Shown one piece after another: positions 1,896-7,051 of a stretch of 64,000 nucleotides of DNA (positions within the stretch are counted from its first letter, which is position 1; every line of letters starts with the position of its first letter). The DNA is taken from NCBI GenBank assembly GCA_964500435.1, contig CAZCNL010000010.1:1326-65325 (forward strand). Reading direction: 5' to 3'. The notes beneath the pieces were generated by a model. The model ran no database searches and was not told the DNA's origin. It was given only the letters and a program-made list of their open reading frames with translations. The translations under genes and the position numbers were made by a program. The DNA is from an uncultured Chloroherpeton sp. Its GTDB lineage: Bacteria > Bacteroidota > Ignavibacteria > Kapaibacteriales > UBA2268.

Positions 1896-3065
1896 ATGAA
1901 AAAGATTTATTTAATAATATTTTTTATACCAATTTTGTTGAAAAGCACTGTTCCAGAAATACCTGAATTTGATTACGAAAAAATTATAAATTACGATATA
2001 TATTCTGATAATAGAACAGTCTGGGAAGTTGGCTTTTATGATTTAAAATCTTTTTATCTCTTAGTTCCAAATATATCTATTAAATTTCCAACAAGAGACG
2101 ATTTTACAAAAGGTAGCTTTTTTATTGCACCAACATTATTGGGGAAAGATGGTTCTCTAATAAAAATAACAGAAACACGAAGAACAGGCACATATTTTGA
2201 TTCATTGGCCGATACAGCTCATATTTTCTCTTATGTCCTTTCTGACGAAAATAAAATAAGAATTATTTGCAAGCGAGGATATCCAACATATTTGAGTTAT
2301 TCTTTCAAATCACACCCACTGATATTTGATTTTAATTACAACTTAGAATTGCAAAAAGTAAAAACAGACACAACTTATTTCCATCCGAATTATGGATCAT
2401 ACTTAGTTATAAAAGATGGACATTATTATTTTGGATACAACGACCTTAAATTCTTGCAAGATTCGAATGGATATGTATTAAAACGGTGGGGTGAGTATTA
2501 TATTAAGGAATATAAAGAGACTGATAATTATTTAGAAGATATGCATAAAGACATAAAATTAAAATTCCCCTCTGATACCGTAGATACATTGTTACGAGAA
2601 TTAATGAATGAATTTACATTTGGAATACAAAAGTATCCGAATGAAGGACAAATATCAGCATATTTTTACTTTAAAGACACAACCGGCAAATTATACCAAA
2701 GATTATGCTATTTCGATAAAGAAGGAAATTATTTGTATTGTAATAAAGAAAAATTGCCAACAGTCATTATAACAGGTTCGATTTATGATAAAGATGAAAA
2801 TGCATATACATTTAATCGCAATCTTGATAAAAGTGAAAGTACTCCACCAACGTTAATAAAATATGATAATAAAGGCAATGTAATATGGGAAACAGCATTA
2901 CCATTGGATTTAAAGGAAAATGATAGCTTAAAAGTATATATTTTTCGAAACAATATAGTAGCAAAATTTTTAGATTCGAATCACATCATAGTATTTTATT
3001 CAAAATATTATTATGGTCCCGATAAATCAAGGATACTTTTCCCTCGTTTGTCGAAGAAAAAATAA
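1896..3065 (+). pseudogene. 3'-truncated tandem paralog of 269-1891, lacking the T9SS CTD
   Basis: Long identical blocks with copy 1 up to ...YYGPDKS (nt 3030), then unrelated sequence and a stop 11 codons later. Confidence 0.8.
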
Positions 3066-3266: not shown

Positions 3267-4430
3267 ATGAACGAAGAAATAATATTGATAAATGTATCAG
3301 ACATTGCTTCGCACCCGAAGCAAGAAGAAATTTACGGCGAAATGAGCCTCGAGCCCGAATTCATCGCATCAGTCAAAGATGATGGTATCTTAAATCCAAT
3401 CATAGTAACCTATTCAAATCTATTTGGCGGGATTTCTGATTGCAAATACACGAGTATATCAGGTCATCGCAGACTTGCAGCTTGCAGGGAATTGAATATT
3501 GAACAAATTCCTGCTATTATAAGAGAATATAATTCAGCCGAAGATTCTGTAAAATCTCTCCTTGCTCTAAACTTCCAAAGAGAGAAAAATGACACTCAAA
3601 GAATAAATGAATTTTTGGCATACAAGCAAATATTGTGCCAAATCGGCAAAAAGCACAAGGGCAAAGGTGTTTACACTGACACTGTATTTGATAATGATGA
3701 GTTTTCGACACTTGTCAAAAACTTAAAAATCGACCCTCAGCGACCCTTAAATTCGACAGATATTTTGAAAAATATTTGCGGTTTTGCAGAAAGAGAGCAA
3801 AAATATATGACTGTAATTTTTGATGCTGATTATCAGCCTCGAACAATCGAAAAACTTACAAAATTAGGACTTTCGCTCGATGACCATAATGCTTTGCTGA
3901 GTTTTTGGAATGATATACGAACTGAAGTAACTTCGAAGCAACGAACACTTAAAAATGCGCACGATGCAATCAAGTCAGCAATTAATATGTACGCTGCAAA
4001 GCTCGAAGAGCAGAACAAAAAGCCTGCAAAAAAAGCTACGCCGGACAAACAAAAGCCAAAAGTAGCGGCAGAAGTGCCAAAACCAAAAGTAGCGGTAGAA
4101 GTGCCGAAACAAGCCAAATTTGTGTATCTGTCCGGACCGATAAGCAATAATAATAAATACGTCGATGACTTTGCGAAAGCAGAGAAGGCAGTAAAAGATT
4201 TATTTCCTTCAAATTACAAGGTTATCAATCCTGCTAAGTTTTCAATCGATAAAACGGGAGACGAACATGTAGACTGGATTAAATACATGGCAGAGGAAGC
4301 GATACCGCAACTACTGTCAGAAGCATGCGATGCCATTGCGATGCTCAAAGGCTGGGAGAATTCGAAAGGAGCGTCAGTTGAACATGCGATCGCAAAAGCG
4401 ATGGACTACACGATTGTTTATTTAACTTAA
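3267..4430 (+). CDS. ParB/Srx N-terminal domain protein fused to a C-terminal DUF4406 / nucleoside-deoxyribosyltransferase-like domain
   Basis: N-term SVKDDGILNPIIV...ISGHRRLAACRELNIEQIPAII; C-term VYLSGPIS...F...E...VINPA...CDAIAMLKGWENSKGASVEHAIAKAM. Confidence 0.75.
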   Translation: MNEEIILINVSDIASHPKQEEIYGEMSLEPEFIASVKDDGILNPIIVTYSNLFGGISDCKYTSISGHRRLAACRELNIEQIPAIIREYNSAEDSVKSLLALNFQREKNDTQRINEFLAYKQILCQIGKKHKGKGVYTDTVFDNDEFSTLVKNLKIDPQRPLNSTDILKNICGFAEREQKYMTVIFDADYQPRTIEKLTKLGLSLDDHNALLSFWNDIRTEVTSKQRTLKNAHDAIKSAINMYAAKLEEQNKKPAKKATPDKQKPKVAAEVPKPKVAVEVPKQAKFVYLSGPISNNNKYVDDFAKAEKAVKDLFPSNYKVINPAKFSIDKTGDEHVDWIKYMAEEAIPQLLSEACDAIAMLKGWENSKGASVEHAIAKAMDYTIVYLT

Positions 4431-4443
4431 CCGGGGTGGTTTA

Positions 4444-4692
4444 ATGTTTTGTCCGAAATGTTCAAGTGATAATTGGTCTGTAATCAAAAAGTATTCTTTT
4501 CGTCGTTTTGTTGAAGGAAAAGGCTGGGTTTACTCTGATGAATATGATACACGTAGATTGCTCTGCAATAACTGCATGAGTGTCTTTTTGGTTGAATCTA
4601 AAATCGTATTCAAGGAGGAATTTGATGAACTAAAACACAAAAAGAGAATCACTGTAGTTCACAAATCACCATTCGACGAGGATGCGAAATGA
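4444..4692 (+). CDS. Zinc-ribbon protein (Ogr/Delta- or NrdR-N-like), possible late-transcription activator
   Basis: CPKC...RRLLCNNC..F.VE two-CxxC pattern. Confidence 0.5.
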   Translation: MFCPKCSSDNWSVIKKYSFRRFVEGKGWVYSDEYDTRRLLCNNCMSVFLVESKIVFKEEFDELKHKKRITVVHKSPFDEDAK

Positions 4693-5681
4693 AAGAATTT
4701 TTAAAAGCAGTGAAAGAGTTGGTTGAAAGACTTTACAAAGAAGGGCGCCCGGGCGACATTAGCAAAGAAATCAAAGCTTTAGCAAAACAATACAAAATCG
4801 GCGAGCAAGGTTTGAGAGAAGCTAAGAAAATACAGAATGCTTACCAAAGCAATTTGGAAGATGAATTTATCAAAAAATTCACGAAAGAATTTACTGTAAG
4901 TGAATTTGATAGAATTTCTGAAAACTTTCAAAAGAATGTAGTCGAGTCCGTTAAGCGTTCCATGCGTTCATCTGACCCTGATATAGCTGTAAAAGCAGTA
5001 AAAAGGCTGGGTGTTGTAGCAGAAAGGCATTTACGGACAGTTGTCCAAACAGCAAAGGACGGCATCAACCAGGCTCAGGTAATCGAAGATGCCAAGAACT
5101 CAGGCATTAAGCAAATGCGGTACGTCGGCCCTAAAACAAGTCTTCGCCCTTTTTGTTTCAAGCACGTTGGTAAAATCTACACTATCGAAGAAATCAAAAA
5201 TATGAGCAATGGTCAAGGTTTGCCCGTATTGTACTTTGGCGGCGGCTATAACTGCCGTCACAGGTGGGTCGCTGTGGAAGGCGAGGAACAGAATGGAGTT
5301 TTTCTCCACGAAAGTTTTAAGGCGAAATACGGCAGCAATGTGCCGAAAGTAGTTGCAGAAGAAATAAAAGGAGCCGAATTACTTGCCGCTCACGGTAAAG
5401 TGGAAATCAATCCTTACCGTCAGGAGCAAGAAAAAGCCGATACAGATTTGTTCTTCGACGGCAAACCTGCGCAATTGAAACAAACAAATTCGCAAAACGA
5501 AAATATTTTTAGACAAAAACTTCGGGATGCTCGTCATCAAGCTGATAACGTAATAATAATTTTTAACGGTTTGCCTGATGAATCAAGGTCGATAGAAATC
5601 GCAAAGAATTGGCTTAGAAAGCATCCCGAAAAGAAATTGATAATATACAATAAACAAACTCAAAAATTTAAGGAGATTTAA
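4689..5681 (+). CDS. MuF/minor capsid (head morphogenesis) protein with a C-terminal CdiA-like PD-(D/E)XK toxin domain
   Basis: R.FC...GK.Y...GGYNCRHRW MuF-type motif, then DTDLFFDGKPAQLK...FRQKLRDARHQADNVIII. Confidence 0.7.
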   Translation: MKEFLKAVKELVERLYKEGRPGDISKEIKALAKQYKIGEQGLREAKKIQNAYQSNLEDEFIKKFTKEFTVSEFDRISENFQKNVVESVKRSMRSSDPDIAVKAVKRLGVVAERHLRTVVQTAKDGINQAQVIEDAKNSGIKQMRYVGPKTSLRPFCFKHVGKIYTIEEIKNMSNGQGLPVLYFGGGYNCRHRWVAVEGEEQNGVFLHESFKAKYGSNVPKVVAEEIKGAELLAAHGKVEINPYRQEQEKADTDLFFDGKPAQLKQTNSQNENIFRQKLRDARHQADNVIIIFNGLPDESRSIEIAKNWLRKHPEKKLIIYNKQTQKFKEI

Positions 5682-5961
5682 AATGAAATACGCAGACTGG
5701 GTAGATGATTTTGAAAGCGGCACAATCGAATGGAATATCGAAACTGCTTGTTATGCTTTGGGCGCCATCGAGTCTGATCGCCTCCACGGTGATTTAACCG
5801 ATGAAGAAGCTGAAAAACTTAAAAAAATGCTTCCGTTGACAAAGGAAGATCTCGCTAAAATTGATTTTTAAACAAAAGGAGATTTAAAATGAAATACGGT
5901 GACTGGGTAGATGATTTTGAAAGCGGCACAATCGAATGGAATATCGAAACTGCTTGTTATG
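5670..5961 (+). repeat. 86-bp direct repeat (5670-5755 and 5876-5961), period 206 bp
   Basis: AAGGAGATTTAAAATGAAATACG(CA/GT)GACTGGG...GCTTGTTATG; only 2 mismatches. Confidence 0.95.
5683..5871 (+). CDS. Small acidic protein, candidate cognate immunity protein 1
   Basis: 62 aa; starts 1 nt after the toxin stop; RBS AGGAG. Confidence 0.55.
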   Translation: MKYADWVDDFESGTIEWNIETACYALGAIESDRLHGDLTDEEAEKLKKMLPLTKEDLAKIDF

Positions 5962-6077
5962 TGCTGGGTATTCTTTTCTCAGATTATATAAATCATCAGA
6001 TAACCGAAAAGGAGTATGACGAACTGGTAAAAATGGTGCCTATCTCTAAAGAAGTCAAAGACAAAATTAACTGGTGA
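5889..6077 (+). CDS. Small acidic protein, paralog of 5683-5871, candidate immunity protein 2
   Basis: 62 aa; first 24 residues identical except one; C-terminal half divergent. Confidence 0.55.
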   Translation: MKYGDWVDDFESGTIEWNIETACYVLGILFSDYINHQITEKEYDELVKMVPISKEVKDKINW

Positions 6078-6460
6078 ACAATATGAGAAGAGATTTAGAT
6101 TTGGTAAGACATCTGCTGCTTAAGCTCGAAGGAGAGCAATCTTATAAGGATGCAAAAGAATCCGCAGCAGATGCAGCTTTGCTGACAAATACGAAGATTA
6201 CGAAAAAAACTGTCCATGAACATTATTTATGGCTTTTTGATGCGGGATTTATTGAGGCTCAGCTCATCGCAAGAGCTGGCGGTTACAGCGTTGTTTATCC
6301 TCGCAGGCTTACATGGGCAGGCGCAGAGTATTTGGATTGCGTACGAGATTCGAAAATCTGGAGAGAAACCAAAAGTAAACTTTCGGCAGTTGGCTCGGCT
6401 TCGCTTCCGATTATCCAAAAATTAGCAGAAAGCATAATCAAAAAAGTGCTTTCCATTTAA
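6074..6460 (+). CDS. DUF2513-family protein (start may be the ATG at 6083)
   Basis: MRRDLDLVRHLLLKLE...RLTWAGAEYLDCVRD..IW..TK signature. Confidence 0.8.
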   Translation: MNNMRRDLDLVRHLLLKLEGEQSYKDAKESAADAALLTNTKITKKTVHEHYLWLFDAGFIEAQLIARAGGYSVVYPRRLTWAGAEYLDCVRDSKIWRETKSKLSAVGSASLPIIQKLAESIIKKVLSI

Positions 6461-6480
6461 TAATTTTTTAAACCAAATCC

Positions 6481-6507
6481 AAAAGCCCTCAAACGAGGGC
6501 TTTTTTT
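6481..6507. terminator. Bidirectional intrinsic terminator between convergent operons
   Basis: AAAAGCCCTC-aaac-GAGGGCTTTTTTT. Confidence 0.85.
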
Positions 6508-7051
6508 ATGAACGCGCTTTCAAATCCGTTTTAATTCTGCTAACGGCTTCATCAATGAATTTAGGGTCGTTCAGAACCAATCCTGCTGCATAATCTAAAA
6601 GCCTATTTTCGTTTTCGTCGGTAAGCCCGAAGAACTTCCAAAGCCGCCTACTTTTGCCCACTCCCGAAACGTTAAACCAGAACGCTTTTTGTGCCTGTTC
6701 TGCCGAAGTGAAGTAAATAACGCTACTTGTATCGGATTCTGCTCTCGCAGAAATTGATTTTAGCATTGAACCTGACCATTGTAGGTAATCGCCTTCAGGA
6801 TTTCTGTTGTTCATCACTCTCCAATCTTTGTAACCACCTGTAACGATCTGCCAAAGTTTGCCATTTGCATTAAAAGGTTTCAATCTTCCTTCTTTTTGCA
6901 GTGTTTTGAGCCCTTTCAAATTTCGTTTTGCGGGCATAGCAAAAGGTTTTGTGGAGTATTTGTAAGATTTGCCATCTACATCAACTCCTTTTTCAATTTG
7001 CTCGTTAATAAGCTCGATAGCATAAAAAGCGATCTTCTCGATTATACTCAT
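6506..7051 (-). CDS. Phage virion morphogenesis protein (Mu gpG-like)
   Basis: G.D.DG...LQWSGSMLKSI...R.W.FFGLTDENE resembles the virion morphogenesis family; directly after the portal. Confidence 0.55.
   Translation of the reverse strand: MSIIEKIAFYAIELINEQIEKGVDVDGKSYKYSTKPFAMPAKRNLKGLKTLQKEGRLKPFNANGKLWQIVTGGYKDWRVMNNRNPEGDYLQWSGSMLKSISARAESDTSSVIYFTSAEQAQKAFWFNVSGVGKSRRLWKFFGLTDENENRLLDYAAGLVLNDPKFIDEAVSRIKTDLKARS

Follow-up and report, generated by a model that had tools for sequence, protein, structure and literature searches.

What kind of event leaves two adjacent small genes that begin almost identically and then diverge as if they came from different phyla? This question is raised by a locus in the window, the whole 64,000-nt stretch of an uncultured Chloroherpeton sp. 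genome that was analysed here (GenBank assembly GCA_964500435.1, contig CAZCNL010000010.1, positions 1,326 to 65,325), where genes A and B, each encoding 62 amino acids (aa), follow a gene for a MuF-type polymorphic toxin. The initial annotation had described both genes with coordinates, lengths and peptide strings exactly as we find them and had proposed that they are stacked immunity alleles. Our analysis points to a probable answer along these lines, namely that A and B form an immunity-type tandem, a minimal "polyimmunity" stack made by recombination behind the toxin. From their position and family patterns, A and B most likely act as immunity proteins for the toxin encoded at 4689-5681.

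The two genes are carried by two 206-bp units that abut head to tail (5670-5875 and 5876-6081) and align without gaps. Both units have the same make-up (AAGGAG, 7 nt, ATG, 62 codons, stop, 4 nt), and the same-strand spacer between A and B is 17 nt. Over unit positions 1-86, 84 of 86 bases are identical, both mismatches lying in codon 4 (GCA in A, GGT in B), whereas only 64 of the remaining 120 nt agree (53%), with third codon positions alike at 13 of 38. The 86-bp repeat at a distance of 206 bp, with two mismatches and a strongly diverged remainder, is thus as the initial annotation had it. Its further claim, that such uneven divergence is unlike a plain duplication, is strengthened by the identity contrast between the unit halves (Fisher exact p = 3e-14) and by a maximum chi-square breakpoint at unit position 86 (chi2 = 48.7), a value reached in 0 of 20,000 permutations. 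A repeat search of the neighbourhood returned a single 93-nt direct repeat (5670-5762 / 5876-5968, spacing 206) and no other long repeat.

Selection on the protein was considered as a cause of this asymmetry and ruled out by the synonymous sites. The synonymous proportion different between A and B (Nei-Gojobori) is 0.086 over codons 1-24 and 0.85, which is saturated, over codons 25-62; because synonymous sites show the asymmetry, it reflects differing sequence age and not protein selection. Across the family, moreover, conservation is lowest in the N-terminal ~16 residues and highest in residues 17-62. Since the N-terminus is the least constrained part, selection would be expected to give the reverse of the observed identity, which is limited to the 5' end, and the near-identical 5' blocks of A and B indicate a recent copying event.

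The two genes appear to differ in origin. Gene B is, by sequence comparison, the vertically inherited ortholog of the single small gene found in relatives: it shares 90% amino-acid identity with the protein of loci L001/L002 (P0003), its nucleotide identity is that of the rest of the locus, and it is under purifying selection against the L001 ortholog, with a nonsynonymous-to-synonymous ratio (dN/dS) of ~0.1. Gene A reads as a chimera, in which a B-like ribosome site and 24 codons are followed by a deeply diverged 3' half. Its residues 25-62 are only 37% identical to B, as distant as homologs of other phyla (Ignavibacteria, Kapaibacteria). A nevertheless keeps all seven family-invariant residues of a 12-member alignment (W17, N18, T21, Y24, G27, L46 and P51), including G27, L46 and P51, the three located in its 3' half. 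Under the favoured explanation, the ribosome site and first 24 codons of A would be a recent copy of B-lineage sequence or would have been overwritten through gene conversion, and its last 38 codons would derive from a very distant allele. Two routes are conceivable: assembly of A as a chimera, in which an imported 3' half was attached at the conserved WNxxTxCY motif to a 5' end of the B lineage, or an older A gene whose 5' end was replaced through conversion from B.

The junctions of the units are tight. Gene A starts 2 nt past the toxin stop, and the AAGGAG of the first repeat copy doubles as coding sequence for the toxin's last residues K-E-I and stop; the corresponding AAGGAGATTTAAAATG, which encodes K-E-I-stop, the ribosome site and ATG, is kept even in the distant locus L112. 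At the A/B junction between the A stop and the B ribosome site (ACAAAAGGAG), microhomology amounts to ~2 nt (AA), the full AAGGAG is kept for B, and the toxin tail that precedes gene B is 13 nt only. A model with the longer GAGATTTA microhomology was rejected, as it fails to reproduce the observed sequence.

Recombination between the 86-bp repeats would excise one 206-bp unit and leave a single gene with the 5' end of A and the 3' half of B, and the initial annotation had suggested that one copy could loop out in this way. Relative to the window, L001/L002 lack exactly one 206-bp unit, and their one small gene, of B type, carries A's codon 4 (GCA) together with B's 3' half. This is the expected loop-out product and would be equally compatible with the ancestral state, so the 206-bp difference agrees with the suggestion, and a gain in the window fits it equally well. 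The same gene bears on the proposal that A and B are an old tandem duplication under concerted evolution, in which repeated gene conversion would hold the 5' parts identical and drift or selection would drive the 3' halves apart; function would be as in the favoured explanation and history alone would differ. L001/L002 would then be loop-out derivatives, their gene being the exact product of recombination between the 86-bp blocks, although GCA is perhaps simply the ancestral codon. The proposal also draws on the general knowledge that conversion confined to the most similar stretch is common among tandem paralogs, and in a fused pair of small-protein domains (locus L188) the N-terminal halves look more alike than the C-terminal halves by eye. 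Against it, a single copy occurs in all the closest relatives (L001/L002, L003/L004) and in the majority of the distant ones, which would demand several independent losses, and a 3' half as far from B as homologs of other phyla fits import better than divergence in place. We therefore regard an old duplication as unlikely, though worth keeping in view.

A and B stand together on one contig only in the protein collection, and 86-bp repeats are a classic cause of short-read misassembly, so an assembler that merged two strain alleles (toxin-A and toxin-B) in series had to be considered. Codon 4 differs between the blocks, hence they are not one reused graph node. Further evidence comes from the Logan assemblies, in which k=31 and each 31-mer is kept once per accession (PMC12424806). 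For this reason a sequence present twice must cut Logan contigs at its edges, and the identical core here is 61 nt long (5695-5755 = 5901-5961). Two contigs with a toxin gene identical to the window's, L190 (SRR12969846) and L189 (ERR14373517), both stop at window-equivalent 5724, 30 nt beyond the A-specific bases of codon 4, L190 being unbranched through the toxin tail and GCA up to that point. A 40.5-kb contig of the first run (L191, SRR12969846) begins at window-equivalent 5932, 30 nt ahead of the first B-specific base, and is unbroken across the B 3' half, the DUF2513 gene and the portal gene. The contigs of SRR12969846 equal the window over the compared parts, so that this run may be the sample from which the window came, while ERR14373517 represents a different background, with other sequence further upstream and the same break. 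The breaks at 5724 and 5932 are those predicted by the limits of a core present twice, and the tandem is therefore real; had two strains been mixed, one toxin-A-DUF2513 and the other toxin-B-DUF2513, the toxin contig would end at 5692 and L191 would be cut where DUF2513 starts. An assembly artefact, which the initial annotation had named as a finding that would undo its proposal, is thus very unlikely, to the point of being negligible. Exact-sequence look-ups of A and B returned nothing, plausibly because k=31 assemblies cut both genes at the repeat.

The toxin itself combines two recognisable parts. Its long, helical N-terminal part, with an invariant GGGYNCRHRW motif, matches MuF models below threshold in the window (PF04233 E=0.017; TIGR01641 E=0.0017), and among 14 aligned homologs PF04233 is found in 4 (best 3e-8), PF06152 in 7 and PF18451 in 10. 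The AlphaFold2 model (predicted local distance difference test, pLDDT, 85.8) finds fold matches in BFVD with E down to 3e-7, which include a minor capsid protein and a MuF-like fusion protein and also a "CDI toxin-like protein" (CDI, contact-dependent growth inhibition). Membership of the MuF class is thus predicted mainly at family and fold level. The C-terminal ~120 residues (~212-330) are polymorphic among homologs. Compared with the PDB by fold, the whole model aligns best with 4g6v_A (probability 1.0, target template-modelling score 0.54), which is the CdiA-CT of Burkholderia pseudomallei 1026b and a PD-(D/E)XK tRNase (PMC9086364); E225, D253 and K264 are invariant in the toxin C-terminal alignment. 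The domain is most likely a putative CdiA-CT(Bp1026b)-like PD-(D/E)XK nuclease, and toxin activity would follow from this resemblance. The upstream MuF toxin proposed by the initial annotation is in this way corroborated as a MuF-like protein with a CdiA-CT-like domain, by Pfam in homologs and by fold matches. PDB sequence searches with the toxin family and the C-terminal domain gave nothing meaningful, a PARP14 macrodomain match (E=0.04) looking like chance, and neither blastn of 4400-6500 nor tblastn of the toxin against 50,697 records of cultured phages gave a match.

The arrangement resembles the MuF polymorphic toxins (Jamet et al. 2017, PMC5576092; MuF class, Zhang et al. 2012, PMC3482391) in its MuF/SPP1-gp7-like N-terminus with a variable C-terminal toxin domain, in its phage head-gene neighbourhood (portal, terminase) and in the small open reading frame (ORF; <150 aa) immediately after it. 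It differs from them in that the MuF match is weak and the gene is convergent with the portal operon, not downstream of the portal gene. CdiA-CT/CdiI of Bp1026b (PDB 4G6V, PF18451), the best fold match, has a comparable spacing, E...D...K in the window toxin being like E187/D214 of the solved toxin; unlike that system, delivery would be by a phage MuF domain and not by a CdiA filament.

The small proteins define an unnamed family of ~62-66 aa, predicted to fold into four helices (2-12, 19-34, 40-49 and 54-60 in the AlphaFold2 model of the 62-aa protein; pLDDT 85). An exhaustive HMMER search of 1.84 billion representative proteins gave 18 matches, nine of them 62-85 aa long and one, P0055, a 174-aa protein with two copies of the domain. 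W17, N18, T21, Y24, G27 and L46 are invariant in the family alignment, with P51 added in the 12-member alignment, and in every full-length member the C-terminus lies exactly 46 residues from W17, whereas the N-terminal ~16 residues vary freely; the wide family alignment is too variable for pattern scanning. With a toxin partner, the family ranges over Bacteroidota, Ignavibacteria and Kapaibacteria. No CdiI appears among the 40 PDB fold matches listed for the 62-aa model. The CdiI of 4G6V is, we presume, a larger alpha/beta protein, compared with the 62-aa four-helix partner here.

To place the locus among relatives, 191 loci were gathered via the conserved motif of the toxin and exact-protein look-ups, and a toxin of this C-terminal family is present in 44 of them. 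From these, 33 distinct pairs of toxin end and small gene were obtained, and the small gene abuts or overlaps the toxin stop in 33/33. In distant toxin subtypes, the small protein after the toxin is also distant and at times barely recognisable. The comparison of the window with L003 reveals the borders of the exchanged cassette: nucleotide identity is 91-100% from 4140 to ~5550, falls to 53-80% over 5555-6072 and exceeds 90% again from the first DUF2513 codons. Synonymous divergence (dS) of the toxin rises correspondingly from 0.39 over codons 1-290 to 1.19 over codons 291-330, and nucleotide identity of the toxin tip is 69-80% to L003 and 71-80% to L001. This comparison supports the proposed cassette exchange well, since the toxin's last ~40 codons and the small gene are the only part in which window and L003 depart from 91-100% identity.

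A second mosaic is provided by L187, whose toxin is 50% identical to the window's. There the toxin and a 66-aa gene are followed by a DUF2513 stub of 33 codons, an orphan toxin end of 46 codons and another 66-aa gene. The ~400-bp direct repeat that makes up this orphan module matches the main module at 87-100% outside two patches, namely the toxin tip (43-67%) and immunity codons ~30-41 (73%). As two independent comparisons, window/L003 and L187 therefore single out the same segments that vary jointly (in window numbering, residues ~296-322 of the toxin and ~28-38 of the small protein), and these patches constitute the strongest indirect evidence here for an interaction between toxin and small protein. 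They narrow the likely determinants of specificity accordingly in the two proteins, and chimera A offers a ready-made natural domain-swap experiment for them. Under the favoured explanation, the specificity parts would comprise the toxin's last ~40 residues and the immunity protein from ~residue 25 on, travelling jointly as a recombining cassette between the conserved toxin core and the DUF2513 start. A and B would then present two different specificity surfaces from identical translation signals, co-expressed with the toxin.

The same observations bear on a function other than immunity, in which the small proteins would be regulators, for example, or chaperones or adaptors packaging the MuF protein into capsids. 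Such a role would suit their lack of homology to any known immunity family, the second-ranked but non-significant PDB match of the 62-aa model to SPP1 gp23.1, a putative chaperone (E=2.9), and the established head association of MuF proteins (PMC5576092). It sits poorly, however, with orphan modules of toxin tip and small gene in the L112 and L187 chromosomes, with no phage genes in the stretches examined, with the persistence of the small gene in prophage remnants (L003), and with a variable patch that changes along with the toxin tip, all of them hallmarks of toxin and immunity pairs. We consider it decidedly improbable.

Copy number varies among the homologous loci, as the initial annotation had anticipated: one gene, two genes, fused pairs and orphan modules all occur. 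Nor do homologs always carry both genes unchanged, since L001/L002 and L003/L004 are single-copy, L003/L004 holding a third allele. In L112, a chromosome-sized contig of 1.38 Mb, the region between asnS and a flavoprotein gene contains three toxin genes or parts (one truncated, one full, one an orphan end), and a separate small gene follows each; imm1 and imm2 of this locus diverge evenly after module duplication and so form a contrast, not a parallel, to A and B. L005/L110 have a full pair on one strand and, on the opposite strand, an orphan toxin end followed by two small genes. In L188, an intact toxin is followed by a 153-aa fusion of two small-protein domains.

These double arrangements would suit a heteromer or bivalent inhibitor, in which A and B act as one immunity unit against the resident toxin and not against two toxins. 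Fusions of two domains occur right after an intact toxin in L188 and also in P0055, the arrangement recurs as separate genes in L005/L110, and identical ribosome sites of A and B predict similar expression. However, the toxins of L001/L002 and L003/L004, 88-96% identical to the window's outside the tip and intact in L003, have one small gene each. For this toxin type a single copy thus seems to suffice, and a joint unit is improbable.

L003 5400-7560 (= L004) retains only the end of a DUF4406 gene, a Zn-ribbon gene, the toxin in intact form, a single immunity-type gene and a truncated DUF2513 gene. This remnant (window-equivalent 4140-6330) lies between FBPase and accA, both housekeeping genes, on a 542-kb contig. 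The toxin-immunity module has thus outlived the rest of the prophage, as expected of an addictive or otherwise selected module.

The stack can be set beside systems already described. Homogeneous polyimmunity loci (Zhang et al. 2012, PMC3482391) share with it tandem same-strand paralogs, here with the 17-nt spacer and no toxin cassette between them, and a copy number that varies between close relatives (two in the window, one in L001/L002 and in L003/L004); L188 and P0055 likewise resemble polyimmunity proteins in being fused multi-domain versions. Unlike those loci, the window has two genes only, inside the toxin operon instead of in a separate island, and one member is a chimera that shares its 5' third with its neighbour. 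By sequence pattern, tandem paralogs variable in number and type place A and B with polyimmunity genes, which would give them an immunity role. Orphan cdiA-CT/cdiI and Rhs-CT modules (Poole et al. 2011; PMC9086364) are displaced cassettes of toxin end and immunity gene stacked downstream of an active pair, and orphan immunity is thought to protect against foreign toxins (PMC9086364). The likeness to them lies in recombination at conserved sequence upstream of a variable toxin end; unlike them, the extra unit of the window holds no toxin fragment beyond 13 nt, and orphan modules proper are found only in the relatives L005/L110, L112 and L187. Polyimmunity loci and orphan cdiI genes (PMC3482391, PMC9086364) make it plausible, by analogy, that the stack would protect against the toxins of other phages, as the initial annotation had proposed.

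MuF toxins are established (PMC5576092), as are cassette recombination, orphan modules, and polyimmunity loci and proteins (PMC3482391). What is new here is the immunity-type family, MuF loci with orphan modules and stacks, and a natural chimera that delimits the probable specificity module. The newly defined family, of ~62 aa and four predicted helices, has an invariant W-N-x-x-T-x-x-Y-x-x-G and is partnered with a MuF-delivered CdiA-CT-like nuclease. In the searched text of the 2017 MuF survey (PMC5576092), the words "orphan", "tandem" and "Bacteroidetes" are absent, and orphan modules or stacked immunity genes in MuF loci, as in the window, L005, L112 and L187, may be unreported as far as that text goes. 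MuF toxin loci behave like CDI and Rhs loci, with cassette replacement, orphan modules, and stacked and fused immunity. Diversification by recombination and accumulation of immunity genes is well established, and the finding extends known biology and overturns none.

Several observations weigh against an immunity stack behind a MuF toxin. The window toxin is below the Pfam CdiA_C (PF18451) cut-off (22.8 vs 26.6 bits, E=1e-4), the Foldseek E-value of the 4g6v_A match is 0.018, and this toxin subfamily has Gln (Q262, QLK) at the usual acidic position of the (D/E)xK motif, a point of difference from CdiA-CT of Bp1026b. The small-protein family has no match in Pfam, PHROGs, PADLOC or NCBIfam, and the 62-aa model has no significant PDB fold match (best E=2.4), which leaves it apart from CdiI-type immunity proteins. 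No toxin paired with an A-type allele came to light, and the tips of L001 and L003 lie at about the same distance from the window toxin tip (78-80% amino-acid identity). Portal, large terminase, tape measure and ParB-like genes stand beside the toxin, and no integrase, lysis or baseplate genes were seen in the phage-like region (3.2-27 kb). Finally, a Mantel test on 19 full-length pairs correlates immunity divergence with the MuF core (r 0.69) no less than with the tip (0.66), r for tip, C-terminal core and MuF core against immunity being 0.64-0.69. Since all parts co-diverge, the global test is uninformative, and local mosaics were taken in its place. The co-variation of toxin and immunity alleles predicted by the initial annotation accordingly holds for the local mosaics (L003, L187), and the Mantel test does not single out the tip.

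Searches for the source of the A-type 3' half remained negative. No close relative of this half, which includes the peptide AIESDRLHGDLTDEEAEKL, was found in any collection searched, nor was any close relative of the small proteins found in IMG/VR or JGI metagenome contigs. A word-indexed search of 5.8 billion proteins with an A+B profile returned 3 close proteins, none with an A-type 3' half, a weak negative for such alleles since the same search missed the L003 allele. Either A or B may neutralise the resident toxin, and the stack may bring a benefit. A holds the canonical adjacent position, and a B-type gene is the sole partner of a near-identical toxin in L001; with the window tip about as far from the tip of L001 as from that of L003, B is only weakly assigned as the cognate immunity gene.

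More tentatively, the small proteins may be modular, with the specificity part swapped at a conserved motif and the products stacked, A being an orphan immunity gene and the 86-bp repeat a means of reversible gain and loss. Helix 1 and the invariant WNxxTxxY start of helix 2 would then form the scaffold, and the rest of helix 2 with helices 3-4 would confer specificity. Phages and remnants would gain new specificities by part swap, stacked behind one toxin with cloned translation signals; A would target a MuF toxin tip not yet sequenced, and the repeat would let the phage population gain and lose the extra specificity. The initial annotation had similarly seen the shared 86-bp block as a recombination handle. 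Within this genome the block can serve for gene conversion and one-unit deletion, and the claim stands to that extent. It does not extend to the population, where synonymous sites between the window alleles and the L003 allele are saturated and the borders of the window/L003 exchange lie outside the block, at the toxin core (~codon 290) and the DUF2513 start. The identity of the 86-bp block is local to this genome, the product of gene conversion or of the event that built the chimera. Coordinates of the features are collected in Table 1.

Table 1. Coordinates of the toxin operon, its tandem units and adjoining features in the window
Feature	Position	Strand	Description
Gene A, 62 aa	5683..5871	+	Putative immunity protein, probable chimera; family hidden Markov model (HMM) E=7e-27
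Gene B, 62 aa	5889..6077	+	Putative immunity protein; family HMM E=2e-30; apparent ortholog of the L001/L002 single gene
Repeat copy 1	5670..5755	+	AAGGAG ribosome site and codons 1-24 of gene A; 84/86 = 5876-5961
Repeat copy 2	5876..5961	+	AAGGAG ribosome site and codons 1-24 of gene B
A-specific divergent segment	5756..5875	+	Codons 25-62, stop, ACAA; 53% identical to B segment
Polymorphic toxin, 330 aa	4689..5681	+	Helical MuF/SPP1-gp7-like N-terminal part and CdiA-CT(Bp1026b)-like C-terminal domain (predicted)
Toxin tip, last ~40 codons	5555..5681	+	Helix 298-311 and two strands; variable, changes with the immunity gene
Zn-ribbon-like gene, 82 aa	4444..4692	+	End overlaps toxin start (ATGA); only weak Zn-ribbon Pfam hints
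DUF2513 gene	6083..6460	+	PF10711 E=4e-21, phrog_585; start is the right-hand border of the variable cassette
Terminator-like hairpin	6481..6504	.	10-bp stem, consensus scan only; between toxin operon and convergent head-gene operon

The setting of the operon is phage-like. Upstream of the Zn-ribbon-like gene lies a fusion of ParB_N and DUF4406 (3267-4430, + strand; 387 aa, and 378 aa in L189), the latter domain being nucleoside 2-deoxyribosyltransferase-like in PHROGs. Past the hairpin, on the opposite strand, a 181-aa gene is followed by a Mu-type portal gene, the large terminase gene, and capsid and tail genes up to the tape measure. The genes on either side encode type IX secretion tails, and G+C rises from ~30% to ~40% inside the element, which identifies the setting as a prophage, or what remains of one, in a genome of the Bacteroidota. 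The phage-like region extends over ~3200-27021, a host gene with a type IX secretion tail beginning 380 nt past the tape measure, and it is probably a truncated prophage. The modules of L003, L112 and L187 lie in chromosomes without phage genes in the stretches examined. A scan of the immediate neighbours revealed no recognisable recombinase gene, and a sigma-70 promoter scan, with a model unsuited to Bacteroidota, gave counts at background level.

The 181-aa gene 3' of the portal gene (6506-7051, - strand) has no family match and is conserved opposite the toxin operon in many loci, with a fragment in L005 and reverse-frame traces in L007-L010 and L029-L035. It sits where Mu-like phages normally carry their MuF gene. 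The Zn-ribbon-like gene stands directly 5' of the toxin in L003, L005, L187, L189 and L190; a protein of 65-83 aa with CxxC...CxxC is encoded at L003 5753-6004, L005 1943-2140 and L187 2000-2245, and the overlap with the toxin start recurs across distant loci.

Two relatives place toxin cassettes beside a possible CRISPR-Cas gene. At L001 986-1032, after cas1-cas2 and a terminator, a 47-nt sequence (GTTGCAAACTTACAAAATCAAAGAACAAAATGAAAGCAAATCACAAC) that starts with GTTG and ends with ACAAC, and is thus CRISPR-repeat-like, abuts a 5'-truncated toxin gene whose ATG falls within the 47-mer. In L002, from another run, the same 47-mer is present at both contig ends and follows a truncated DUF2513 gene, with the contig closing into a 1190-bp cycle. 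The phage toxin-immunity fragment may thus lie between two CRISPR-type repeats or be tandemly amplified; the 47-mer has no Rfam match and no copy in the window. The second case is L005, where a 382-aa ORF (698-1846) starting MEDLKLKKVLGLDIGSNSIGVALV lies just 5' of the Zn-ribbon and toxin genes; its start resembles a Cas9 RuvC-I motif by eye, but it has no Pfam match.

Just outside the phage-like region, a second tandem duplication with uneven divergence was observed on the + strand. The paralogs at 269-1891 and 1896-3065, of 540 and 389 aa, agree fully over their N-terminal ~60 residues and are nearly identical over further long stretches, and the 540-aa protein ends in a type IX secretion sorting domain while its partner is shorter.

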